Source: Somniosus microcephalus
Lineage: Eukaryota
Assembly (NCBI GenBank): GCA_052327205.1
Contig: CM126214.1
Span: 138,198,001 to 138,262,000 of the forward strand
Reading direction: 5' to 3'
DNA length: 64,000 bases
The translations under genes and the position numbers were made by a program. The first letter of the stretch is position 1. Each line of letters opens with the position of its first letter. The notes beneath the pieces were generated by a model that was not told the DNA's origin, made no database searches, and worked only from the letters and a program-made list of their open reading frames with translations. This document shows positions 4,938 to 46,900 of this stretch, piece after piece.

Positions 4938-5411
4938 CCATCTTCTGCCACTCTGAATAGCTACCTTTACCCTAACAAAAGAAATGCAAATTAAAGTGGC
5001 TGGTATGTAGCTGAAGCACTTAGTTTGCCAGAAGTCCATGTCATTGTGCGGTGTGTGCGTGGAGGGGTGGTGAGGGGGGGGGGGTATGGCTGAGGAAAAA
5101 GAAAGTAAGAATATCTAGTGATCAGGGTTAATGATAGTATTAAAATGAAAAATGAAATATAGTTACTGATCTGCTAGGCAGCATCTAAAGTAAAAATTAC
5201 ATTTTAAAATTGTGGTGCTGAGAGGGGCTTAAATTAATATCGGGATCCAGTAAAATATGGGCACTCATTTTAATCCCCCACTTTCCTTGAACCATTTCCC
5301 CCATAGATCACCATTTAAAAAATGTAAACACTAATGTAATAAAATCTTCATGAACGGATACGGATCAGACTGCAAAAAATGTTTACAATAAACTCAACAA
5401 ACCACACCTAC

Positions 5412-7139
5412 CTTCTTGTCCAATATTAGGATCTCTACTATTACTGGGTCCACAAGTACTATACAGTGAAGCAAGATCTTGCGGGTTGTAGGACTTCAAA
5501 ATTTTCAATACATTCCAATGCGAGTCAACTCCATTTGAATCCAAGGCTGATTCTGGCTTAGATGATACCCCGGAGTTTCTTGACTGAACAGGGGACATCT
5601 CCTGAGATAATAATTTAACATTTCTTCCTTGGACACCCCTCCTTGTTCCAAATGTAAGCTGATCATTTCTTAAAGGACTGTTTACTTTCATTCTTTTAGC
5701 TGTAGGCTCATGCGAGTCCAAGCCTCCCTGATTCTCTGACACATTAGTAAGACACATTTTGCTAACATTTGGCGCCCAAAGACTATCATATCTAAACAAA
5801 GGTCCCCTAGGTCCATCAGATTCGTAGTCCAACTTAATGCCAGGCCTTTCCAACATATTTCTCTTACTATTACCAGCTTCTGAGGATTCACTTCTTTCCA
5901 TTTTTTGCACCACATCTGGCATTTGCCTAAGTTCAGTATGTATGGATCCATAGTTTTCTAGATGTACATTAGGATTTTGGGTAGCCTTGAATGCTTTAAA
6001 TTCGCCTGAAGATCTAGATCCTGCTGCAGAGGGAAGGAGATTATTGCACAGAGATTGGTGTGATGATGATGATGGTGATTTTGCCTTCCCAAGCAGCACG
6101 TTTGAAGCATCTGGTGAAGCTGCTGGTAGTGGTGACCTGGTCCGACGAGAAAACTTTCTGTTCATTTCTTTGGTGGCAAGCAAAGAAGAAACATCTTGAC
6201 CTAATAGTGCAGGAGGGCATCCAGTGCGTCTGCTTTTAACTGACCCACCACGAACAGCACTTCGAATTCCATTTATTGGACTTGGGTCAGGATTATATTT
6301 GTGTACCAACCTTTGGTGCATCACTAAGACCTCTGGGTACAAAGTTCTGTAAGTACAAAATGGACACGTGTTGCTCAGTAAGGCACTCTTGGAAACTGAG
6401 GTAGATGCATTTCCCAGAGGACTACCACCACTACACAGGCTTTGCTGATATATTGTGGTGCAGAGATTCAAGGGCTTTTCCAATAAGCTGGATTCAAATC
6501 TATCACAGTCGTCCTCCATATTACCTCTAGCACTAATGTAGCATTGGTCATTTATTGAAGCAGATTCCAACTTTATGCTTCTAGCATTATTCTGTTGCAC
6601 ACCATCTTCTGACAGTTCTTCCATTAAACATTCCTCCAAAACCTTGGACTCGTCTAGGTCTATAACCGCCTTTGGATCAGAGTCACTCCTGTGGAACTCA
6701 CTCACCACCTTTTCATCCTTTGATTTCTCACGATATGGCAGCACTGCATTACAGAAGATCCGGCGATTGTTATGAAAACTAGTATTCCTGTTCAAGTCTG
6801 GGAACGGTCTATTCATATTTGAAAACATAACATTTTGAAAAATCGGACGAGAAGAATGAGTAGGTTTGAGTTTCCTCCGAGGAAAGTCTGCATCTAAATC
6901 TTTGGCACTGCCCAAAGAATCTGTAATCAACTTCTTCGAGTCCACAGATTCCTGAACAGATTCATCACTTCCTTTTGGTACGACTTCCAATTTCGGAGAT
7001 GCCATTGAACTCTTCAGAGGATCACTCTTTTCTTCAGCCTTTTTCTGCTCACCCTTGTGGTGTCGCTCCAAGTGATATTTAAGTGAGGTCTTTTGAGCTG
7101 CAGCATAGTCACAGAGAGGACATCTATGGGGTTTTTCAC
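5412..7139 (-). CDS. ZNF217: ZNF217 large coding exon (1728 bp; two fingers and CtBP-binding motifs)
   Basis: Acceptor TTTTGCTTCAG|GT. Reads GEKPHRCPLCDYAAAQKTSLKYHLERHHK...KPLNLC...CPFCTYRTLYPEVLVMHQRLVHKY...RRTGCPPALLG. Donor GAAG|GTAGGT at 5412/5411. Next exon not identified in 1-5411. Confidence 0.93.
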
Positions 7140-8336
7140 CTGAAGCAAAAACAAGAAAAAGGTTTTAAATATACTATATTTAGGGTCTACCAATCGTTAC
7201 ACTACAATTCACAATCACACCCAAAAATCACATTTTTGTCACGAGTCCTACCCTCTGTAATTGATTTTAATACCGTTTCAATCTTGCATATCCATGCTCT
7301 ACCTGGAAGGGAGAAAAGAGTGCTTAAAACATCTAATGCATGATGAACCAGAGATAGACCTCTCCTAAAGAGAAAATAAAAATTTCACAACTCTGGTTTG
7401 TTTTGGTGGTTGGGAGGGAGTTGGGGGGGGGGGGAAAGAGAAAATGAAACTGCAAAGCTGGGGTTGGGTTAGTTTTTTTTTATATAAAAGTACAACTTAA
7501 GGCAACCAAGAATCATTAATGACTGCCATGGAGTTCTCCACAGGTCAGGCTTCAGCATACCCACCTGGCCATGAATACCAAGGAGATAGGGTCAGAATGT
7601 GGACATAGCTATCAAGGGGAGACGGTTAAAAAGTCTAATGTGGAGCAGTGAACGGTGCCGAGCACACAACAGTTTCGGACACCGGAGGTCCTCAGTGAGC
7701 CATGAAAATGCCAGAATCTTTAAAAGTCAATAGTGCTGCATTTCAAGTTACCCCATTGGGATGATGCAGAGAATAAGTGGGTTTATTAAACAATAAATTG
7801 GGTAAAATTATTACAGATGGTCAGGATATGCCAGATATTTTGAATGGATTTTTCACATCACAAAATGAGGACTGCAGGCTAACTATAGTAAATGGGATTA
7901 AGCCGTCCATAACACATAAAAGCTAGTAAAGATGGTGCTGAGCAAAAACTGGAAGGATGAGATGGCTACAAGGCTTCTAGGCCAGAAGGGATTAATTCCT
8001 TGAGGATTCTGGAATGTACAGTATGATGAAATTCATCATTTTTTTGCTGATAAAATATTGGAGTAGTGCCTAAAGACCGGAAGATAGAAAGTGTACGTTT
8101 GATATTTAAAAGAGTAGCAAGTGCGACAAATTTCAGGTCTGCCTTAAATATTCTATCAGCCACAGAAGTGTTGGTCACTCCTGAAAGTGGTCCATTATCC
8201 AGGGGTCTGGATATCCAGTTATACAATAGTGTAACCCAGGGCTATAACAATAGAGCCCCCTTTGTAATCTGAACTGGATAGGACGTCTTTCCACATCCCA
8301 TCTTTCAGTGGGTGGACTGAAACACTTGTGATATGA

Positions 8337-17015: not shown

Positions 17016-17814
17016 GAAGCAATTTTTAACTGATTTAAGCAAGACAGCTTGATAAATACTTTTTTTTTTTTTTTAAAAGAAGTTACCAGGACCAAACATA
17101 TTTAAAATAGTTTCAAATTCACATTTGATCAAAACCCACAAAATGTATTTGAATCGAATGGCTTGGACCCTTCCTCAGACATCAGGCAAAGGCAAACCAA
17201 TTAAAACCTGTAATGGAATATGATTTCTAAGTGAAGTGTGTGTTAATCACTTATGAATATTAGCATAATGTTAGAAGCCAAGAACACAAAAGTGCTTAAA
17301 ACAAAAAAAACATTGTGACACATTTAACAGTTTTAAGACAATATACTCCACTCCAGTTCCTGGTTTTTATTGCTATACATTTCAAATACATTGACATATA
17401 AGTAACCAAACAGGAGTCTAAGAATCTGAGATTTAATGAAACCTTTTAAATATTGTAGCCCAATATTCTCACTCCTTAAAAAAAATGTACGCTTCACATT
17501 TGTTTTAACCGCTACCCACTGTCCCTCAAGACATGAATTAATTGGAGAGAACCCAATTGCACATTTTAGCAAGAAACCACTTCTTTCTAGGTGTACACTT
17601 TCAAACCTTAAAAGACAATTTTTTTGGAAGGCTACTAAATTTGACAATAGATCACCAAAAATGTGGGCTCTTCTATCTTGAGATACTGTGGCAGAAGTTT
17701 GCACAGATTCTTATCCAAGAAGAAAGAATTTTCAAATTCAGAAAATTGAGTGTTGGCAAGAAATGTAAACGAGCATTAGACCCAAGCATCCCAATAGGTT
17801 TATAACCTTCCTAC

Positions 17815-19588
17815 CTGATGAAAGTCCTTCTCCTAGTACTCCATCTTCTGAGCCCTCTTCAGAGCCCTCCTCAGGTTTGTCAGCTCCTGGGCTATGGTCT
17901 TCAATTGTTGTAACGGAGTCTATGGATTGAGTGCCAGCTTCACTGCCATCAACTGAATTTGGAGGATTCTCCACACTTTTCCTGCCTTTCCGGTGTACTC
18001 GGGAGTGGAGCACTAACTGATGGTAGGTTCTAAAAATCTTACCACACATTGCGCAGTTGGTCGGTTTAAGTTTATTCTGGGTCAATTTCGAGTCAATGTC
18101 CACATCTCCCATTGGAGGCAGTCCATTCTGGCCTAGACTGCTGTTTTTGATTTTAGACTTTTCTAGGTTCTCCAAGGTAGGACCATGATTGCCTTTCTCC
18201 ATGGTCCAATGCTCACTGGAATCCTCTTTGTCGGAAGGTTCCTCTTCATTCTCAGAGTTTGCCATTTGCCCTGGATCTTTCACATTCTCTCGGCCAACTG
18301 CCACTTTTCCCTTAGTAGCCAGCTGCCAAGCTTGGTACGTATTGAAAGGATCAAGTTCAGATATCCATTTTCCCAGCTTCACAGGCTTGTTACAATTGTG
18401 TGACAAAAGGGGATTTAAATTCAGCATCTGCAGGAATGCTTCCTGCGATATCGCAACTTCCTGATTTAAGGAGTAATCGTCCAGTCTATCATCATCGGTG
18501 AGATCTTTGTTGTGAACTTTACTATGTTCTTTCAAGCTGTCTTTATTAGGGAAAAGAAATCCACAAACCATGCACATTTTGTAAGGAGAGGCAACGTTTC
18601 CTGAAATTGGTTCTTGCATAGCAACATTATTGATAGTTGCAGGACCTTCTGAATCCTGCTGTGATTTGCCCCTAGCTTTACTCGAATGCGTTCGCATATG
18701 GTTTTTTAGAAACCAAGGCTCCTTAAAACGTCGGCCACATACATTACAACCATAGGTAAATGAATCCTTGTGTTTCCTCATGTGTGTTTCCAGACTCAAA
18801 GCACTCTCGCAGGACAGTCCACAAACTTTACAGCTGAGCTCACCATCTTTGTTTTCATCATTTGCCTCTTGTTCTGGAGAACTTGCTGTAATATGCACCT
18901 CTTCGATAGGACTCAACCCTTCCTCCACCTGGAGGACTGCGGGCTCACATAGCGTAGGCCTGTGCTGAATCACTACATGGTGACGGAGTTCTTCCGAGTG
19001 TTGAAAGCCTTTATTACAAAACATACAAGGCAGAGGTGGACATTCTTCAGCTTGAACTGCAACATTTCCTTCCAAACCGTCAAAAGACAAAGCAACACCA
19101 TTTATTGGCTGATCAGTCTCAATCATGTCAGCATCATTAGGCCTGATGCTATTAGACAAAGTATTTGGGCTAGCAAAGCTTGTAGGTGACAGATTGGCCT
19201 TATTTCTTCCAGTTTTTCTTCCTTGTTGCAAATGGTCTAGTTTGTGCTTTCGAAGATGAATTTTCAAATTTGATTTCTGGGACGTTCTATGGTCACAAAA
19301 GGGACACTTAAATGGCTTTTCATTTGTATGCATGTGCATGTGCTGTGCTAAAAGGCTACTGAAAGGAAAGCACTGGTCACAAATTGAACAATGATGTTCA
19401 ATAGAATTTTTTGCATCAGAAAAATCACCAAGTGTTAAGTTCACATTTTCTTCGACATCCACAGATGTTTTCATTATGGAGCTCTCCGTAGATTTCATCA
19501 CAAATTCATGAGTAGGCTGGTCAGTAAACCAAGGCATAAGCTCTTCTTCAGATGTTCTTTCCTGGTCGTCTTGATATTGTATTCTCAT
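17815..19588 (-). CDS. ZNF217: Zinc finger protein 217, first coding exon (591 codons + 1 nt; 7 C2H2 fingers)
   Basis: ORF 17738..19639 has ZNF217 hallmark segments CMFC...QHRPTLCEPAVLQVE, HKDSFTYGCNVCGRRFKEPWFLKNHMRTH, PYKMCMVCGFLFPNK, LDPFNTYQAWQLATKGKVA and CGKIFRTYHQLVLHSRVH. First in-frame ATG is at 19588 (true start not proven). Phase-1 donor TCAG|GTAGGA at 17815/17814. Candidate acceptor TCTGCTTTCAG| at 19691/19690. Confidence 0.93.
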
Positions 19589-20059
19589 CACATTATTTTG
19601 AGACAATACAAAGCTTTGGAGTTTCAATTTCAATCCCAAAAGCTTGCTTTTCTTGTGTCCTTGTACTTACAGATGCAGGGGTTTCAATTGCTGAAAGCAG
19701 AATACAGAGCATTCAAAATAAGATTAAAACTATCATTTAAACCGTTAATATATTGTGCAACAAAAGAACTGATTGTTTAAACAATATGCTTCAGTGCCAA
19801 AAATAACTATGGATGGTAAAAAAAGTTCCAATTCAAAACAAGATACTTTGCACAAATTTGTATAACTACTTTCCACTGCAATGTAAACGTCAGGGACATA
19901 AAGAATAATAAGATTAGAAAATCCAAACCAAGTTACTCTTTGGCAGGCCTTATCAAAGGCAGCCCCAGCTCGAAACCTAGTAAACATTCACTTCTATGCA
20001 GTTGTTTCTGCTAAACTGGAGACCTGGAAGTCGGACTCCATTTTTCCTTTGGACTTATC

Positions 20060-34600: not shown

Positions 34601-37600
34601 CACCAAATTCACATTTCCCCAATTTAAATTATTGCATCATTTAAATCTTTTGACACAAGTGACTTCAAATTATCAAGCGTGGACTGTACATCAAATTGAA
34701 AACATTGAACCAATTTGAATGGGTTAAAGCAGGAAGTTGCAGTCTTTAATTTACTTTTCCTGGCCCTTTATCTTACATTCTTTACTCATTTATTATCACT
34801 CCTTTCTGTAAAATTTGTTGATTACTCACCTGGTGGCAGAGCTAGTTTTTTCCCCCCAAATGACTAAGTGAGACAGCAATAAGGGCTCTACAACTAGCCC
34901 AAGTATTAAGCAGCAAAGGGGTTGGGTGATGAAAAGGAAAAGCGTTATATAGAATTCCCATCCCTGACAATGAGCATCAACAAGTAATTTGGCTTCTAGA
35001 GCATCATGGCCTAATTCAATCCTGGATTCACCACAAATGTATATAACAATCTGGTGTGGGAACTCTGTCCTCTCTCTCACTTCATGCAGCAGCCAAATTT
35101 GCAGAGCTCCACTAGAACCCCAGCCAAGATTAACTAACTTAGTACAGGGTCTGTATATTTCAGTATTACACCAAACAGTGCATTCAACAGGAGCCATCAG
35201 GCACGAATTATAATTTTTTTTTTATTTTTTAAACTTTCAATACAGAAATCGACAGTATAAATAGAAGGCACTGGCAGGAAAAGGCCGGATATTGGAGAGT
35301 AAATCAACTCACGATGTGAAGCATAAAAACTACAAATTCATTATTTTAGCACCATTCCATTCATCAGGATGGAGAACTTTAAACGTTGAGCTACAGAGGT
35401 AAAGAGCTCACATTTGTTCCCTGAAGGCTATCTGAAGTTTCTCAAGCCTGGGCCAACAACCGAGAGAGAGAGAGTTCAAATCTCACCATGGCAGTTTGAG
35501 AATTTAAATTCAATTTTTAAAAAAGCCAGCATCAATAAAAGTGACCAGGAAGCAGTCATATTGTCATAAAAACCCAACTCGTTCATTCATAAGAGAACAT
35601 AAGAAATAGGAGCAGGAATAGGCCAATCGGCCCCTCGAGCCTGCTCCGCCATTCAATAAGATCATGGCTGATCTGATCCTAACCGCCAATCCACTACCAC
35701 AGAACCATCTCCTGAATCTAACAGAATTAGACACACGAAATAGGAGCAGGATCAGGCTACACGGCCCCTGAGCCCGCTCCGCTACCCACAGGGCCATGAC
35801 CGATCCGAACCTAGACTCATGTCCAAATTCCTGCCCGCTCCCCGTAACCCTTAATTCCCTTTACTTCTAGGAAACTGTCTATTTCTGTTTTAAATTTATG
35901 TAATGATGTAGCTTCTACAGCTTTTTGGGGCAGCATATTCCATGGACCTACCACCCTCTGAGTGAAGTAGTTCCTCCTCATCTCAGTTTTGAAAGAGCAG
36001 CCCCTTATTCTAAGACTATGCCCCCTAGTTCTAGTTTCACCCATCATCGGGAACATCTTCCCCGCATCCACCCGATCCAACCCCTTCACAATCTTATATG
36101 TTTCAATAAGATCACCTCTCATTCTTCTGAACTCCAATGAGTAGAGTCCCAATCTACTCAACCTCTCCTCATATGTCCATCCCCTCATCCCTGGGATTAA
36201 CTGAGTGAACCTTCTTTGTACTGACTCGAGAGCAAGTATGTCCTTTCTTAAGTATGGACACCAAAACTGTACGCAGTATTCCAGGTGCGGTCTCACCAAT
36301 ACCTTGTACAACTGAAGCAATACCTCCCTATTTTTATATTCTATCCCCCTACCAATGAAAGCCAACATTCCATTGGCCTTCTTAATCACTTGCTGCACCT
36401 GCATACTAACCTTTTGAGTTTCGTGCACCAGGACCCCCAGATCCCTTAGTACTTCCCAGTTTCTTGCCATTAAGATAATAACTTGCTCTATGATTTTTCC
36501 TGCCGAAAACTGCATAACCTCACACTTTCCAGTATTGTATTCCATCTGCCAAATCTCTGCCCACTTACTTAGCCTGTCTATGTCCCCTTGCAGGTTTTTT
36601 TTATGTCCTCCTCACTCACTACTTTCCCTCCCATCTTAGTATCATCTGCAAACTTTGATATGTTACACTCGGTCCCGGTCCCCTCCTCCAAATCGTTAAT
36701 ATAGATTGTAAAGAGTTGGGGACCCAGCACTGACCCCTGCGGAACACCACTAGTTACTGATTGCCAGTCTGAGAATGAACCATTTATCCCAACTCTCTGC
36801 CTTCTGTTAGATAGCCAATCCTCTATCCATACCAGAATATTACCCCCAATCCCGTGATTTTTTATCTTAAGCAATAATCTTGTGTGGCACCTTGTCAAAT
36901 GCCTTTTGGAAGTCTAAATACACTACGTCCACTGGTTCCCCTTTATCCGCCCTATATGTTACTTCCTCAAAGAACTCCAGCAAATTTGTCAAACATGACT
37001 TCCCCTTCATAAAACCATGCTGACTTTGTCCTATTAAATGATGATTATCCAAATGTCCTGTTACTGTCTCCTTAATAATGGACTCCAAAATTTTACCTAC
37101 CACAGGTGTTAGGCTAACCGGTCTATAGTTTCCTGCCTTCTGTCTACTGCCCTTTTTAAATAAGGGTGTTACATTAGCAGTTTTCCAGTCTGCCAGGACC
37201 TTTGCTGAGTCCAGGGAGTTTTGGAAAATTACCAATGCATCCTGTAATGAAATCTGTTTGTCTTGATCCTGTATTCGTTGAGCACTCATATATATTACCC
37301 TCCCCCACTGTGTATAGTTTCACTTCCTCTTTCCCGACTAACCTGGGAGGTTCCAGGTCTTGGCTCCGCCCCTGACTTCTCTTACATAAAGATCCCAGGA
37401 TCTGTATGACTCATTCCTGTGAACCAGTCGGCGTGTTGAGATGTTAGCTCTGATCTTAGTGATTAAAAGCCAACTTGTTTAAGTCTATAACTTCTAGTTT
37501 TGTGGTTATTGAAGGCCCATCAATTTTAATCACTAAAGAATACTAGGATGGATCGACTCCTAAAACCAGAGCGTCTGGACTTGGATCCACATTCTACTGA

Positions 37601-39212
37601 AGCATCAAATCAATTTGGACACTGGCTCAAATGCTTCGAACTCTTTGCGGGGGCCTCATCCGCTAGCGAGGTAGATAAACTGAGTCTACTGACTACTCGC
37701 GTAAGTCATCGGATTTGTTCGTTCATCCGGGACGCCACCGCTTACACGGAGGCCATCACTATCCTGAAGGCCCAATACCAGAGGCCGGTAAACGAAGTGT
37801 ACGCCAGACATCTGCTGGCTACACGCAGGCAGCGACCAGAGGAATCAATGGACGATTTCTTACAGGGCCTAAAGGACCTGGTCCGGGACTGTAACTGCAA
37901 GGCCGTGACGGCCAACGCGTACTCTGACGAATTGGTCAGCGATTCCTTCATCACGGGCCTCAAATCGAATTATATCCGGCAGAGACTGCTGGAGAAGGAG
38001 GTCCTGGACTTAAAAAAGGCAGTGGCCACTGCGCGATCGCTGGACGTGGCCCAGAGAAACTCGGACTCTTATTCTTCCGGCCATGCGGCCCTCACCGCCT
38101 CGTGCGCGCCGAGGGGGCCGCCATCTTGGAATCAGCCATCTTCCCCATCCAGGTCTCAGACCAGCTCTACGCCGCCGGAGTCCCCACAGAAGTTCACCCA
38201 GGAGTCCTACTGCAGCGGCAATGTCTCGAGGCCCGAAATGCTACTTCTGCGGCCAGGCCAAGCACCCCAGACAACGATGCCCAGCGAAGGACGCTACATG
38301 CGTCAAATGTAAGAAAAAGGGGCATTTTAGCAAAGTCTGCACGGGGAATCCGATTTCCAACTCCGTCACCGCCTCGTGCGTGCTGTGCGGGCCGCCATCT
38401 TGGGATCTGCCATCTTTTCCCGACTCAACGGCCGCCCAGGGCCCAACAGTGGCTTCGATCACGGTGGATCAATCCAGGCCACACCCGTTGACAAAATCCA
38501 TGATGGACATACAGGTAAACAGGAATTTAACGAAATGTTTAATTGACTGTGGGAGTACCGAGAGTTTTATCCACCCTAGCCTGGTACGGCGGCACTCATT
38601 AACGGTAACCCCTACACGGAGCAGAATTGCTATGGCTGCTAAGCCCCACACTTCGGACATTTTGGGCTACTGTGTGGTAACACTGACTGTAAAAGGAACG
38701 GACTACAAGGATTTTAAACTCCGTGATGCCAGAACTCTGTTAATGTAATCTTGGGCCTGGACTTCCAGTGCCACCACAAAAGTGTCACGCTAGCATATGG
38801 CGGGTCCCAGCCGCCACTCACAGTCTGTGGCCTATCAACCTTAAAAAGCAGCCCGCCCTCTTTATTCGCTAATCTTGCTCCGAACTGTAGGCCCATAGCG
38901 ACCAAAAGTAGACGGTAGAGTCTGGAAGACAGACACTTTATCAAGGCGGAAGTGGACAGACTCCTGCGGGTAGGCATTATTGAATGCAGTACCAGCCCGT
39001 GGCGTGCCCAAGTAGTCATAGTTAAAAATAGCGAAAAGAAACGGATGGTAATTGACTACAGTCAGACTGTTAATATTTATACCCAGCTGGACGCCTACCC
39101 TTTACCCCGCATATCAGAAATGGTCAACCAGATTGCGCAATACCGAGTCTTCTCGACTATCGACCTCAAATCCGCGTATCACCAGCTCCCCGTTAGAATG
39201 GAGGACCGCCCA

Positions 39213-42200
39213 TGATATACCTATCAATTCCTCCAATAAAAGGCGAAGAGTTACGAAGGTGACTAAAGGTTTTTATTGACTAAATAACAGAGCCCACTCT
39301 CGTGGGTGATCCGATCCAAGCAGGAGGAATACCAGTCAGTCGCTCACCTTTATACCTGGCCTGGTGGGTGGAGCCAAGGCGGAGTCGGCGGTGGTCATCC
39401 CAGGTATAGCAGTGTGGCAAGAGGCGACCTCGTACCGTGATACAATAGTGGTCAGTGATACAGTTATAACGAACAGTGGTGAACAGTGCTAACTACTAAC
39501 AGTGATACGATAGTGAACGTGGTTTACCACATTCACCCCTTGTTTAGAATTAAGTCCGGCGGGGTGAAGTGTACTACCAATTCTGGTAGGTCAGTCTGTC
39601 CGGAGGCTTCGTAAGCCTCTCCGATCGCCGCAGCGGTGGTGTTGCCTTATCCGGTGCTGGTGCCTTATCCGGTGTTGATGCTGGTGTTTGCGTGGTCGGC
39701 GAGGGCTCGTGGGGTTCCGGCATGCCGTCTACCTGGGCTGGGGTTGGGGGGGGTGGTGGCGGTGTTTCCGGATCGGCTGAGGGTGCGAGGTCTCGTAGGG
39801 AGACAGTGTCCTCCCGCCCGTCTGGGTACGCCACGTAGGCGTACTGGGGGTTGGCGTGCAGGAGGTTCACCCTCTCGACCAGGGGGTCCGTTTTATGGGC
39901 CCTCACGTGTTTCCGCAGCCAGACCGGCCCCGGGGCGGTCAGCCAGGTTGGTAGAGTGGTTCCCGTAGTCGACTTCCTGGGGAAAACGAACATTCGTTCA
40001 TGGGGGGTGGTGTTAGTGGCCGTGCAAAGTAATGACCGGATGGAGTGCAGCGCTGTCGGGAGGACTTCTTGCCAGCGGGAGGTTGGGAGGCCCTTAGACT
40101 TTAAGGCTAAGAGGACGGCCTTCCATACCGTCGCGTTCTCTCTTTCCACCTGACCGTTACCTCTGGGGTTGTAGCTGGTGGTCCTGCTTGCTGCAATACC
40201 TCTCTCTAGGAGGAATTGCCGGAGTTCCTCGCTCATGAAGGAGGAACCCCGGTCACTGTGTATATAGTTCGGGAACCCGAACAAGGCGAAGAGGGCATTC
40301 AGGCACTTGATGACCGTGCTACTGGTCATGTCGGGGCAGGGGAAGGCAAAGGGGAAACGGGAGTACTCATCAACGATGTTGAGGAAGTACACATTACGGT
40401 CAGAGGACGGGAGGGGCCCCTTAAAGTCGATGCTCAGGCGCTCGAAGGGGCGGGTGGCCTTGATCAGGCTTGCTCGGTCCGGCCTATAGAAGTGCGGTTT
40501 GCACTCCGCACAGGTCTGGCAGTTCCTGGTCATGGTCCTGACCTCCTCGATGGAGTAGGTCAGGTTGCGGGCCTTAATGAAATGGTAGAGTCTGGTGACT
40601 CCGGGGTGGCAGAGCTGGTCGTGGAGGGTCTGAAGCCTATCGATATGCGCGCTGGCGCATGTCATTCGTGAAAGGGCATCAGGGGATTCGTTCAGCTTGC
40701 CTGGCCGGTACAAGATCTCATAATCGTAGGTGGAGAGCTCGATTCTCCATCTCAAAATCTTGTCATTCTTGATTTTGCCCTTCAGCTTGTTATTAAACAT
40801 GAAAGCCACCGAACGCTGGTCGGTGAGGAGGGTAAATCGTTTGCCTGCCAGGTAGTGCCTCCAGCGCCGTACTGCCTCCACGATCGCCTGGGCCTCTTTC
40901 TCGACCGACGAATGTCGGATCTCGGGGCCCTGTAGGGTCCTTGAGAAGAAGGCCACTGGCCTCCCCTCCTGGTTTAGGGTGGCGGCTAAGGCGAAGTCGG
41001 ATGCGTCGCTCTCCACCTGGAAGGGGATGGACTCGTCCACTGCGTGCATCGTGGCCTTGGCTATGTCTCCCTTAATGAGGGAGAAGGCCGCGCACGCCTC
41101 CTCCGTGAGGGGGAAGGAAGTGGCTTTCAGGAGGGGTCTGGCTTTGTCCGCGTAATTGGGTACCCATTGGGCATAGTAGGCGAAAAGCCCCAGGGTTCTC
41201 CTAAGTGCTTTAGGGCAGTGGGGGAGGGGTAGCTCCATGAGGGGGCGCATTCTTTCTGGGTCGGGGCCGATGATTCCGTTCTCCACTACGCAGCCGAGGA
41301 TGGCAAGGCGTGTGGTGTTAAACACGCATTTCTCCTTATTGTAGGTGAGGTTCAGCCGTTGGGCCGTACGGAGGAATTTCTCCAGATTCGCGTCATGTTC
41401 CTGCCGGTCGCGGCCGCAGATAGTGACGTTATCTAGGTAGGGGAATGTAGCCTGCAGTTCGTTCTGGTCAACCATCTGGTCCATCTCCCTTTGGAAGACC
41501 GAGACCCCATTAGTGACACCGAAGGGGACCCTAAGGAAGTGGTATAGGCGCCCATTCGCCTCGAAGGCGGTATACTGGCGGTCCTCAGGGTGGATAGGGA
41601 GTTGGTGGTAGGCCGACTTCAGGTCGATGGTCGAGAATACTTTATACTGTGCAATCTGATTGACCATGTCAGATATGCGGGGGAGGGGGTATGCGTCCAG
41701 CTGGGTATATCTGTTTATGGTCTGGCTGTAGTCGATGACCAGGCGGTTTTTATCGCCGGTCTTTACGACTACGACCTGGGCACGCCAGGGGCTGCTGCTC
41801 CCCTCGATAATGCCCTCTTTCAGGAGGCGCCGCACCTCAGAGCTAATGAAGGCTCTGTCCCCGGCGCTATACCGCCTGCTCTTGGTAGCGACGGGTTTGC
41901 AGTCAGGGGTAAGGTTAGCAAACAGAGAGGGTGGCGGGACCTTGAGGGTGGAGAGGCTGCAGGTGTTACGCGGTGGGCGGTTTAACGTTTGCTGGTTGTT
42001 GACTGTGAGTGGGGGGAGGGGTCCACCGTATGCTAGGGTTACGCTTTGGAGGTGGGATTGGAAGTCCAGCCCTAGTAGGACGGCAGCGCAGAGATGGGGG
42101 AGGACGAGGAGTTTAAAGTTTTTATACTCCGTGCCCTTAACCGACAGGGTCACGACACAGTAGCCGCTGATGTCCGTGGCGTGGGACCTCGATGCCATCG

Positions 42201-43913
42201 AGATTCTGCTGCGCGTTGGTAGGACAGAGAGGGAGTAGTGGCTCACCGTGTCTGGGTGGATGAAGCTCTCCGTGCTTCCGCTGTCGAACAGGCAGGTCGT
42301 GGCGTGGCCGTTCACTTTGATGTCCATCATTGACTTGGACAGATGGTGCGGGCGGGCTTGGTCCAGGGTGACGGAAGCTAGTGTGTAGCTGAGCGAGTCG
42401 TTGTCATCTGCGGGCGAGGCGGTCGGGCGTGGTGAGTAAAATGGCGTCTCCCACGAGGTAGGGCAAAATGACGGAGAAGATGGCTGCCCCCGTAGCTCAC
42501 ATGAGGCACTATTGGGGTCGGTTGCCTTAATCAAAGATGGCCGCCCCCATGACTCATGTGTGGGGATGCTGGCCTCAGTTGCCCTAAACAAAGATGGCCA
42601 CCCCCATGACTCATGTGTGGGGATGCTGGCCTCAGTTGCCCTAAACGAAGATGGCCGCCCCCATAGTTCGCATGCGGCACTGCTGGCCTCTGAGGATCCG
42701 CTCCTGCAGGCCTTGGAGAAGTGGCCTTTCTTCAGGCAGGTTCTGCATGTGGAGTTCTTGGCTGGGCAGCGCGACCTCGGGTGCTTCTCCTGGCCACAAA
42801 AAAAACAGCCGGCGGCCCGATCGCGGATGCCCGATGTCGGGGCCGGTGCCGGGGGTGGCGGGGCCGGTCGGGTCCGGGACGCCGACGCAGAGGTAGGTCC
42901 CGGGGGCGGCGCTGGGAAGGGTGCTGTGGTAGGGGTCGGGCCCGAGTCCCAGGGTCGCGAGCAGTACCTGGTGAATGCTTCCTGATCTTGGTGGGCCACT
43001 TCCAGGGAGATAGCGAGGGCTTCAGCTTTTTCCATGCTGAGGTCTTTAGCTTCCAGCAGTCTTTGCCGTGAGTACTCGGACCGTAGGCCTTTCAGGAATG
43101 CGTCGCGGATATTATCTTCAGTATTTTCGGCTGCCGACACCGATTTAAAGTCACAGTTCCTGGCGAGTGCATATAGCGCCTGTGAGAATTCGGCTACTGA
43201 TTCTCCTGGCTGTTGCGGCCGTGATCTTAGGAGGTGCCTAGCGTACATGTAGTTTACCGGGGTCCGGTACTTCTGTTTCAGCAGGTTGATGGCGGTCTCG
43301 TAGGTAGTCATGTCCTCGATGAGAGTGTATACTCTCGGGCTCAGTTGCGCCTGCAGGACACTTAGTTTGGATGCCTGAGGGACGCTGGATTCTCTCAGGT
43401 ATGATTCGAAGCAGACCAGCCAGTGTTTAAAGTCTGCGGCTGAGTTTGCTGCTCGTGGGTTCAGGTCCAGGTACGGCGGTCTGAGGGCTCGCAGCCAAGC
43501 TGGCTGGTGTGGCTGTGCTCCTGGGAGCTGCGCTGGTGGCTCCTCCGCCGGTTGTGACTCGTTGTCGGACATCATTAAATTTAGTCAATAAAATTGATAT
43601 ACCTATCAATTCCTCCAATAAAAGGCGAAGAGTTACGAAGGTGACTAAAGGTTTTTATTGACTAAATAACAGAGCCCACTCTCGTGGGTGATCCGATCCA
43701 AGCAGGAGGAATACCAGTCAGTCGCTCACCTTTATACCTGGCCTGGTGGGTGGAGCCAAGGCGGAGTCGGCGGTGGTCATCCCAGGTATAGCAGTGTGGC
43801 AAGAGGCGACCTCGTACCGTGATACAATAGTGGTCAGTGATACAGTTATAACGAACAGTGGTGAACAGTGCTAACTACTAACAGTGATACGATAGTGAAC
43901 GTGGTTTACCACA
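39213..43913 (-). mobile_element. Intact Ty3/Gypsy LTR retrotransposon B (4701 bp, probably Mag-like)
   Basis: Two 319-bp LTRs (43595-43913 and 39213-39531) with TG...CA ends, identical by eye. 5-bp TSD GCCCA (39208-39212 and 43914-43918). PPT AAACAAGGGGTGAA before the 3' LTR. One uninterrupted gag-pol ORF. Confidence 0.98.
39574..43575 (-). CDS. Gag-Pol polyprotein, 1333 aa (Gag with two Zn knuckles, PR, RT, RNase H, IN)
   Basis: Knuckles CFFCGQEKHPRSRC and CRTCLKKGHFSKAC. Protease LFDSGS. RT YPLPRI/IDLKSAYHQ/VPFG/YLDN. RNase H SDASD/EKEAQA/TDQ/PDALSR. Integrase HHCC plus IDF/SDRG/VERE. Gypsy domain order, with no env or chromodomain. Confidence 0.97.
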   Translation of the reverse strand: MMSDNESQPAEEPPAQLPGAQPHQPAWLRALRPPYLDLNPRAANSAADFKHWLVCFESYLRESSVPQASKLSVLQAQLSPRVYTLIEDMTTYETAINLLKQKYRTPVNYMYARHLLRSRPQQPGESVAEFSQALYALARNCDFKSVSAAENTEDNIRDAFLKGLRSEYSRQRLLEAKDLSMEKAEALAISLEVAHQDQEAFTRYCSRPWDSGPTPTTAPFPAPPPGPTSASASRTRPAPPPPAPAPTSGIRDRAAGCFFCGQEKHPRSRCPAKNSTCRTCLKKGHFSKACRSGSSEASSAACELWGRPSSFRATEASIPTHESWGWPSLFRATEASIPTHESWGRPSLIKATDPNSASCELRGQPSSPSFCPTSWETPFYSPRPTASPADDNDSLSYTLASVTLDQARPHHLSKSMMDIKVNGHATTCLFDSGSTESFIHPDTVSHYSLSVLPTRSRISMASRSHATDISGYCVVTLSVKGTEYKNFKLLVLPHLCAAVLLGLDFQSHLQSVTLAYGGPLPPLTVNNQQTLNRPPRNTCSLSTLKVPPPSLFANLTPDCKPVATKSRRYSAGDRAFISSEVRRLLKEGIIEGSSSPWRAQVVVVKTGDKNRLVIDYSQTINRYTQLDAYPLPRISDMVNQIAQYKVFSTIDLKSAYHQLPIHPEDRQYTAFEANGRLYHFLRVPFGVTNGVSVFQREMDQMVDQNELQATFPYLDNVTICGRDRQEHDANLEKFLRTAQRLNLTYNKEKCVFNTTRLAILGCVVENGIIGPDPERMRPLMELPLPHCPKALRRTLGLFAYYAQWVPNYADKARPLLKATSFPLTEEACAAFSLIKGDIAKATMHAVDESIPFQVESDASDFALAATLNQEGRPVAFFSRTLQGPEIRHSSVEKEAQAIVEAVRRWRHYLAGKRFTLLTDQRSVAFMFNNKLKGKIKNDKILRWRIELSTYDYEILYRPGKLNESPDALSRMTCASAHIDRLQTLHDQLCHPGVTRLYHFIKARNLTYSIEEVRTMTRNCQTCAECKPHFYRPDRASLIKATRPFERLSIDFKGPLPSSDRNVYFLNIVDEYSRFPFAFPCPDMTSSTVIKCLNALFALFGFPNYIHSDRGSSFMSEELRQFLLERGIAASRTTSYNPRGNGQVERENATVWKAVLLALKSKGLPTSRWQEVLPTALHSIRSLLCTATNTTPHERMFVFPRKSTTGTTLPTWLTAPGPVWLRKHVRAHKTDPLVERVNLLHANPQYAYVAYPDGREDTVSLRDLAPSADPETPPPPPPTPAQVDGMPEPHEPSPTTQTPASTPDKAPAPDKATPPLRRSERLTKPPDRLTYQNW

Positions 43914-46900
43914 GCCCATACACCGCCTTCGAGGCGAACGGGCGCCTCTACCATTTTCTCAGAGTGGCCTTCGGGGTAACAAATGGGATCTCGGTCTTCC
44001 AACGTGAGATGGTCCGCATGGTTGACGAGAATAAACTACAAGCTACCTACCCCTATCTGGACAATGTCACTATCTGCGGGCACAACCAGCAAGACCACGA
44101 TCTAAATCTTGCGAGATTTTTAAAAACTGCCCTAAAGCTGAATCTAACCTACAACGAAGACAAATGCGTCTTCAACACAACCCGTCTCTGTATCCTCGGC
44201 TGTGTGGTGGAAGATGGGGTAATTGGACCGGACCCTGACCGATTACGCCCCCTAAAAGGAACTGCCCCTGCCACACAATCCCAAAGCTTTAAAAAGGTGC
44301 CTGGGATTTTTTTCATATTATGCCCAATGGGTGCCCAATTACTCTGATAAGGCCCGACCCCTCATTAAATCAACGTCCTTCCCACTATCAGCTGAAGCTC
44401 GGGAGGCTTTCACCAGTATTAAACAGGACATTGAAAGGGCTGCAGTGTGTGCAGTGGACGAATGCATTCCCTTTCAAGTCGAAAGCGATGCGTCAGACTT
44501 TGCCTTAGCTGCGACCCTCAATCAGGCTGGGAGACCTGTGGCCTTCTTCTCCCGAACCCTTCAGGGACCTGAAATCAGGCACTCTTCTGTTGAGGCGGCG
44601 GCACAGGCTATAGTGGAGGCAGTGCGGCACTGGAGACAGTACCTAGCCGGCAAACGTTTCACCCTGCTCACCGACCAGCGGTCGGTGGCTTTCATGTTTA
44701 ATAACAAAGGGGGAAAATCAAGAATGACAAAATACTCAGGTGGAGGATCGAACTATCCACGTTCGACTATGATATTATGTACAGGCCGGGAGCCCTTAAT
44801 GAACCCCCAGACGTCCTATCGTGGGGAATGTGTGCCAGCATTCATACGGACAAATTACAGGGTCTCCACAACGACCTCTGTCACCCAGGGGTCACCCGAC
44901 TATACCATTTCATGAAGTCCTGCAATCTGCCCCACTCCATCGAGGTGGTCAGGGCAATGACCAGAGCCTGCCGCATCTGTGCGGAATGAAAGCCTAGTTT
45001 CTACAGGCCTGACCGTGCACACCTTATCAAAGCCACACGGCCATTCGAGCGCCTAAGTCTGGACTTCAAGGGACCCCTTCCCTCTGCCGACCGTAACGTA
45101 TACTTCCTCAATATCATTGATGAATATTCCCGCTTCCCCTTCGCCATTCCCTGCCCAGACATGACCAGTGCCACGGTCATCAAGTGTCTCTGTAATCTAT
45201 TCTGCATGTTTGGCATGCCGAACTACATACACAGCGATAGGGGGACGTCATTCATGAGTGACGAGCTGCGCCAGTTCTTGCTCTCGAAGGGGATAGCCAC
45301 TAGCAGAACCACTAGCTACAACCCCCGGGGTAATGGGCAAGTGGAAAGGGAGAATGCTACTGTTTGGAAGGCTGTCACGTTAGCCTTAAAGTCAAAAGGC
45401 CTTCCGACCTCCTGCTGGCAGGAAGTCCTCCCAGACGTGCTCCACTCCATAAGGTCTCTGTTATGTACTGCCACTAACGCTACCCCTCACGAAAAGATGT
45501 TCGTTTTCCCCCGGAAATCCACCTCGGGCATATCTCTACCCGCGTGGCTGACGTCTCCGGGGACAGTACTATTGCAGAAGCACGTGAGAGGCCATAAAAC
45601 GGACCCCCTTGTGGAAAAGGTACAGCTCCTCCATGCAAACCCTCAGTACGCCTATATCGAATACTCTGACGGGCGAGAGGACACTGTTTCCATAAAAGAC
45701 CTCGCTCCCTTGGGGAGCGGAGAGAACGATGGGAGACTACCCGATGAAGACCTACACTACAAAGAGACAGGACGCCCAGAGGTATCAATACCCAACTTTA
45801 ACCTGGAGGACACTGCAGATAACCTGGAAGACACTGCGGAGGCCCGGACAGCGGAGGAACCAGAATCCACTCCCCTAGGAGGCACCCCAACCGGCTTTGC
45901 GCCGATCACCGAGAACTGCAAAACCTCCTGACAGACTCACTTATACCAACTTTTAAGAAACATCAGCCCGATGGACTAAATCTATAGAAGGGGTGAATGT
46001 AATGAAATCTGTTTGTCTTGATCCTGTATTCGTTGAGCACTCATATATATTACCCTCCCCCACTGTGTATAGTTTCACTTCCTCTTTCCCGACTAACCTG
46101 GGAGGTTCCAGGTCTTGGCTCTTGGCTCCGCCCCTGACTTCTCTTACATAAAGATCCCAGGATCTGTATGACTCATTCCTGTGAACCAGTCGGCGTGTTG
46201 AGATGTTAGCTCTGATCTTAGTGATTAAAAGCCAACTTGTTTAAGTCTATAACTTCTAGTTTTGTGGTTATTGAAGGCCCATCACATCCACAATCCGTAC
46301 CGCCACTTCCCTTCATGTCCTTCAGGGAAGAAAACCTGCGGTCCTTACCCAGTCTGGCCTATGTGTGACTCCAGTCCCAGACCAATATGTTTGACACTTC
46401 ACTCTGAAGTGGCCTAGCAAGTCACTCAGTTGTACCACCACCTTCTCAGGGAAACTAAGAATGGGCAATGCCAGCCTTGCCCACATCCTGAGAATGAACA
46501 AAACAAAATCATGCTTCTACCAAAGGAAGTGGCTTTTCAGGCCACATGATCTTTTTCTGTTCCTGAAACTTCAATCATGGATGCCACTAGCATCAGGCCA
46601 TCCTCTAGCCAGACAGCAAAAGGAGCTAGCCCAGTCTAGATAATAGTACAATGCTCCAATCAAAAAAAGGACCAAGATGCACTGAGGAGTCGTCAGCAAC
46701 ACTTCTCAGCAATATATTTATTTCAAATACAATATAAATTGTCAGGTACAAAGATTTCTAGGTGTAATATCAATTGGTTTCTATACATGAACACCGCCAT
46801 TTTGAAAATATGACATTCTGTTCAGTCTTGAAGACAGAGACCCATTAAGAACTCCCACTGAGCATCCTAAAGAAATCAAAAGCAATTATAAAACCGAGCA

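Follow-up and report, generated by a model that had tools for sequence, protein, structure and literature searches.

The role of the last aspartate of the YxDD motif of reverse transcriptase (RT) is an old open point: yeast mutants altered at this position polymerise without transposing. In the accessible part of its description, the Ty1 D211N mutant keeps polymerase activity, with kpol down 223-fold and a preference for Mn, and loses transposition, with 5-10% transposition rescue by second-site changes in RNase H (PMC2148107). A sequence-only reading that preceded this analysis had stated that this second Asp-to-Asn change polymerises and blocks transposition, correctly so by the same text (PMC2148107). 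The accessible part of a review reports that Ty3 D214N keeps its activity with lower processivity and is lethal for transposition, and assigns Ty3 metal binding to the other two aspartates (PMC5371799). Asn also occurs naturally at this position: the parts of the nematode literature open to us describe a YVDN motif in the Bel/Pao elements Cer7-Cer12 of C. elegans and in hookworm belpaoviruses, including Atlas (PMC554778, PMC9094657), so a natural YxDN is already on record, a correction to the sequence-only reading. The activity of the nematode Asn form was described in 2005 as still to be tested, in the portion of that paper available (PMC554778). For Gypsy elements, no report of YxDN was found in the full-text literature, a scope without most subscription journals and repeat databases; in the latter, YLDN families are probably filed under numbered names. 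A second point of comparison is self-priming, which is predicted, in the accessible part of the source, from complementarity of the primer site to the 5' LTR (PMC6317226).

We analysed a window of 64,000 nucleotides from the genome of Somniosus microcephalus (GCA_052327205.1, contig CM126214.1, positions 138,198,001 to 138,262,000 of the forward strand). It contains two LTR retrotransposons, A and B, with the following features in window coordinates:

37243..46284, plus strand: element A, of the same clade as B, frameshifted, with B nested within its RT
37243-37522 and 45998-46284, plus strand: LTRs of A, with a CATCC target-site duplication
44054..44065, plus strand: RT motif C of A, YLDN (TAT CTG GAC AAT), context ATYPYLDNVTICG
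45988..45997, plus strand: polypurine-tract-like site of A, a 10-mer shared with B
39208-39212 and 43914-43918: 5-bp target-site duplication of B, GCCCA
39213..39531, minus strand: 3' LTR of B, identical in sequence to its 5' LTR (319 nt)
39532..39541, minus strand: polypurine-tract-like site of B, adjoining the 3' LTR
39574..43584, minus strand: single gag-pol frame of B, 1,336 aa from stop to stop, first Met at 43575
41428..41439, minus strand: RT motif C of B, YLDN (TAC CTA GAT AAC), aa 716-719, context ATFPYLDNVTICG
41620..41634, minus strand: RT motif A of B (STIDL), with the first catalytic Asp intact
43595..43913, minus strand: 5' LTR of B, 319 nt, TG...CA

Element B is 4,701 nt long. 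Its frame encodes a CCHC Gag (the knuckles were identified by eye), protease, RT, RNase H and a DD(35)E integrase, in which 35 residues separate D and E (aa 1109-1113 and 1145-1150); env is absent and no Pfam match to a chromodomain was obtained at E 0.001. The order of Pfam domains after Gag (PR-RT-RNase H-IN) is that of Ty3/Gypsy elements, as are the TG...CA LTRs, the short target-site duplication and the polypurine tract. Among solved structures, the best sequence match of the B RT is Ty3 RT (E 5e-32), and the YLDN of B aligns to the YLDD of Ty3; B does not have the canonical YxDD, which is typical of Ty3/Gypsy without being its classifier. An alignment-based structure model of the B RT/RNase H has a normal fold (pLDDT 89.9, against 34 for a single-sequence model), and a fold search with the B RT/RNase H model returned CaMV RT first and Ty3 RT second. 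The pieces of A that resemble B lie at 38745-39209 and 43919-44311, and the two LTRs of A are a single 7-nt indel apart with zero substitutions. The YLDN motifs noticed by the sequence-only reading were recovered letter for letter in both elements; all four codons differ between A and B, each synonymously and at the third base only, and the intact frame and identical LTRs it had ascribed to B were likewise found.

No tRNA gene was found in the window, and no relatives of the B RT were found in the viral contigs scanned. A tandem repeat (57-nt unit, 3 copies) lies between Gag and protease of B at 42477-42690. Frequent frame lengths in the B family differ by a step of 19 aa (1317/1336 and 1325/1344), and two pairs of B-family RT matches (L010/L011 and L028/L029) lie ~4.4 kb apart on the same strand, which fits tandem elements sharing one LTR. 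Minus-strand fragments adjoining A (35817-37319) resemble the RT of what we take to be a CR1-type LINE, and A may therefore have inserted into a LINE. Large minus-strand exons at 5383-7164 and 17738-19666 presumably belong to a ZNF217-like C2H2 zinc-finger gene; the nested elements lie ~18 kb upstream of the larger exon and are possibly intronic.

The exact 33-nt stretch of B that carries the Asn-coding motif is present in 1,436 copies in the genome. Substituting any other base for the first of the Asn codon gave 0 copies, so none encodes Asp, and changes at two control positions gave 2 and 1 copies. Degenerate patterns gave 33,625 YxDN and 3,469 YxDD matches in the genome, with 0 and 1 control matches. 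All of the best 150 RT matches listed for the 6.4-Gb genome have 100% identity to B across 246 residues, and 107 of these 150 lie within open frames of at least 1,300 aa. When the RT of B was compared with those of 11 other YLDN copies, hand-picked among the first listed matches on one contig (C1), dN/dS was 0.06-0.11 in ten and saturated in the eleventh; this range is the same as that of RNase H and of most integrase values. Two RNA runs, chosen by species label, placed 5,572 and 7,710 reads on B, reads that are drawn from many copies and may include host read-through, and family B is transcribed; the first mate mostly maps to the plus strand, as is usual for element-sense RNA in stranded libraries. 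The earlier claim that the Asn is conserved and not a product of decay is borne out by the copy counts and the low dN/dS of RT. Together with the fixed state of the site inside sequence clusters (below), these results reject decay or G-to-A hypermutation as the origin of the Asn. YLDN is a real, selected feature of an abundant, recently amplifying Gypsy lineage.

The sequence-only reading had named two ways in which it might be wrong, namely a YLDD consensus for the family or dependence on a YXDD helper. Judged by sequence, neither holds: YLDD is absent from the copies of family B, and the genome's YLDD family forms a distinct lineage whose LTRs are its own. The sampled YxDD copies belong mostly to this one family (e.g. 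L061-L074), which has ~3,400 motif matches and about 63% RT identity to B. Its LTRs are 227-231 nt long, unlike those of B, with 98.3-99.6% LTR identity where delimited; its sampled copies are more often broken, and some have long open frames. The youngest sampled copies (100% LTR identity) are YLDN. A lone YLDD copy was observed within a YLDN family (L075, G000:C1:47150000-47159000); its frame is broken, its RT has a dS of 0.06 to L076, and its YLDD is probably a sporadic transition.

Across the query and the best 120 of 950 homologs, motif C has N as its last residue in 96 cases and D in 25. The Asp of motif A (121/121) and the first Asp of motif C (120/120) are invariant. Among named hosts of the clade, sharks, rays, corals and a sea anemone have mostly YxDN, and a damselfly and a whipworm have YLDD. 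We also took 150 representatives from 50% clustering, counting those with at least 43% identity as in-clade. The 104 distant in-clade representatives comprise 51 N, 48 D and 5 other or missing, whereas Gypsy RTs outside the clade have DD in 46/46, a set that stands for few lineages and is not a random Gypsy sample. The 80 metagenome loci divide into 39 xxDN, 33 xxDD and 8 degraded. Inside seven 90% clusters the D/N state is fixed, one YLEN excepted. A FastTree phylogeny of 174 rows (162 of 220 in-clade and 12 of 46 outgroup rows kept, tested column removed, no bootstrap) separates clade and outgroup with full local support and has 17 D/N changes, 11 of which are forced by well-supported branches. 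Parsimony gives 2-18 gains of Asn and 2-17 reversions to Asp, depending on the costs, and so allows either direction.

As the clade alternates D and N, YLDN is not a fixed clade signature, which the sequence-only reading had thought possible. That reading had also proposed mapping YLDN and primer-site type onto an RT phylogeny; YLDN does map within one clade, with repeated changes, but the primer site shows no tie to Asn (see below). In the P0239 cluster, a basal in-clade protein family, motif C is ANIDD, with no aromatic first residue in the 3 members covering the site. The clade of A and B may be Cigr-1, to judge by a match in size. Cigr-1 is reportedly small, with a single long frame and ~245-nt LTRs; B is likewise small and has one long frame. 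The accessible part of one study reports the Cigr-1 clade in tunicates and molluscs (PMC6238403).

Neither A nor B has a primer site starting with the TGG of the tRNA type. Each instead has a site complementary to its own LTR:

43579..43593, minus strand: primer-binding position of B, starting 1 nt after the LTR, a 15-nt perfect complement of the LTR arm
43653..43667, minus strand: LTR arm of B, putative self-primer, ending in the poly(A)-like signal AATAAAA
37524..37536, plus strand: primer-binding position of A, perfectly complementary over 13 nt to the LTR arm at 37456-37468, whose last bases are ATTAAAA

Complementarity of the primer site to the 5' LTR, the mark of Tf1/sushi elements, is thus present in both A (13 bp) and B (15 bp). 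Of 37 elements, 22 could be delimited, and pairing of at least 9 bp between primer site and LTR arm was found in 20 of these. In 9 of 12 representatives the pairing within the family is longer than every cross-family pairing, and the arms change together between families. The LTR arm of most families stops 36-58 nt short of the LTR end, its last bases being AATAAA(A) or a variant, and in four families the arm end lies ~80 nt behind a TATA-like box; outside sharks the arm end is often a TAAA variant and not a canonical poly(A) signal. The metagenome loci with an LTR pair have at least 13 pairs in 9 of 19 cases. The short RNA-seq reads on B define no start or cleavage site.

The paired site is also found in YLDD elements. 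It is present in 7 of 7 delimited copies of this genome's YLDD family and in the YLDD metagenome loci L148, L160 and L132, and weakly in L140; among the 9 D-type loci that lack an LTR pair, 6 have no pairing of at least 11 nt, and some of these are truncated or decayed. Because YLDD members carry it too, the priming site belongs to the clade and is not tied to the Asn. The link between Asn and unusual priming that the sequence-only reading had suggested is therefore unsupported, and a one-to-one link is rejected; a link at the level of the whole clade would amount to a single event. Minus-strand priming is probably Tf1-like self-priming from the LTR arm, common to D and N members. The arm would be cut into a primer, and the duplex would mask the 5' poly(A) signal. 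Arm pairing that ends at a poly(A)-like signal is possibly an undescribed variant of self-priming.

We searched for residues that might compensate for the Asn. Strong raw associations with N were found in 3,809 column tests, the best being an RNase H Asn at column 323. In a test corrected for the tree, with 11 independent pairs and hence low power, 0 of 7 columns were significant (an eighth, column 145, lies outside this count). The four RNase H catalytic acids are conserved in D and N groups alike. The clade as a whole is separated from the DD-only outgroup by 22 columns, for example DYSQT in place of DYR-, NGV in place of NAP (motif B) and RAQ in place of xxP. Such clade-specific residues, located in the fingers and motif B, are candidate sources of a permissive background.

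We consider it likely that the clade keeps two essential aspartates and that its background cancels the cost of Asn at the third. The two invariant aspartates, in motif A and first in motif C, would handle metal binding as they do in Ty3, leaving the third position to assist rate, processivity or pyrophosphate release. A clade-wide background, for which DYSQT, NGV and RAQ are the candidates, would have lifted the penalty that keeps the Ty1 D211N and Ty3 D214N mutants from transposing. With the penalty removed in this way, the site would drift back and forth between D and N, and no partner change would be needed at each switch. We infer that a broad animal Ty3/Gypsy clade has an RT that works whether Asp or Asn occupies the last YxDD position. 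The earlier claim of a working natural RT holds in that the RT evolves like a working, self-sufficient enzyme, from which its activity is presumed. Counting against a permissive background are the failure of the Ty1 and Ty3 mutants to transpose, the 223-fold loss of kpol in the Ty1 mutant, the presence of a YLDD family of the clade in this very genome, the 0 compensating residues found, and the origin of the candidates in a contrast between sequences. A more elaborate combination is tentative: the third carboxylate would be dispensable in vivo, giving a two-aspartate RT, alongside an undescribed self-priming that ends at the LTR poly(A) signal, where one duplex would both prime and mask premature 5' LTR polyadenylation, with the priming route or the changes in fingers and motif B permitting Asn.

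Asn may instead be favoured and not neutral, tuning rate, fidelity, metal preference, primer cleavage or strand transfer to suit replication of the lineage. The roughly tenfold excess of YxDN over YxDD matches, the YLDN state of the youngest sampled copies and the 2 to 18 separate gains of Asn that parsimony permits would agree with this. Yet the same parsimony analysis leaves room for 2 to 17 returns to Asp, families with YxDD survive, amplify and remain under purifying selection, and the primer site and polypurine tract are common to D and N members, and we therefore regard a benefit of Asn as unlikely. Still less credible is a crippled YLDN RT whose copies are made in trans by the YxDD RT of a related family. 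The genome does hold a YLDD family of the same clade, which has ~3,400 matches, terminal signals like those of B and a number of long open frames, and mutants of the model systems Ty1 and Ty3 fail to transpose in the accessible accounts; however, a passenger RT would decay, and the RT here has low dN/dS and invariant polymerase-specific residues, while the YLDD family is distant in RT (about 63% identity), has other LTRs and is more often broken in the sampled copies, and family B is without any Asp copy. Restoration of Asp at the RNA or protein level, through A-to-I editing of the Asn codon or through deamidation, can draw on two established processes and on Asn and Asp codons lying one A/G transition apart, but it is highly implausible, since edited genomic RNA would yield Asp-coding insertions (0 beside 1,436), no variant at the Asn codon is among the 40 best-supported RNA differences listed from the two runs, beyond which there are 215 further ones, and Asn-Val and Asn-Ile are slow contexts for deamidation.

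A widespread animal lineage thus appears to copy itself successfully with Asn at the position of the YxDD aspartate. Natural D/N sister families are numerous and independent, and some of them have reached thousands of near-identical copies; the role of the aspartate can therefore be studied in unaltered enzymes. There is also a warning for annotation, as a YxDD filter would mark as dead a lineage that ranks among this genome's most abundant young LTR elements.

Tf1 is primed by the initial 11 nt of its own transcript. Elements A and B resemble Tf1/sushi elements in that the sequence after the 5' LTR is complementary to an LTR segment and there is no tRNA-type site, but the arm in their clade ends at a poly(A)-like signal, ~80 nt behind a TATA-like box in four families, and B differs from the Tf1/sushi chromoviruses in the missing chromodomain match at the integrase C-terminus. 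The engineered Ty1 D211N and Ty3 D214N enzymes have the same change at the same position, with polymerase activity kept in vitro according to the accessible accounts; unlike these mutants, the YLDN families are natural, exist in thousands of copies and conserve the four RNase H acids. The nematode Bel/Pao elements, as far as the accessible texts describe them, share the Asp-to-Asn change at the end of YxDD, and the LTR elements that carry it there are intact and were recently active. B differs from them in having no env and an RT closest to Ty3, and its integrase spacing of 35 departs from the values in the accessible part of PMC554778. Since the Gypsy clade alternates D and N among close relatives, its Asn has an origin independent of the Bel/Pao YxDN, and what is new here is repeated natural D/N switching in a successful Gypsy clade.
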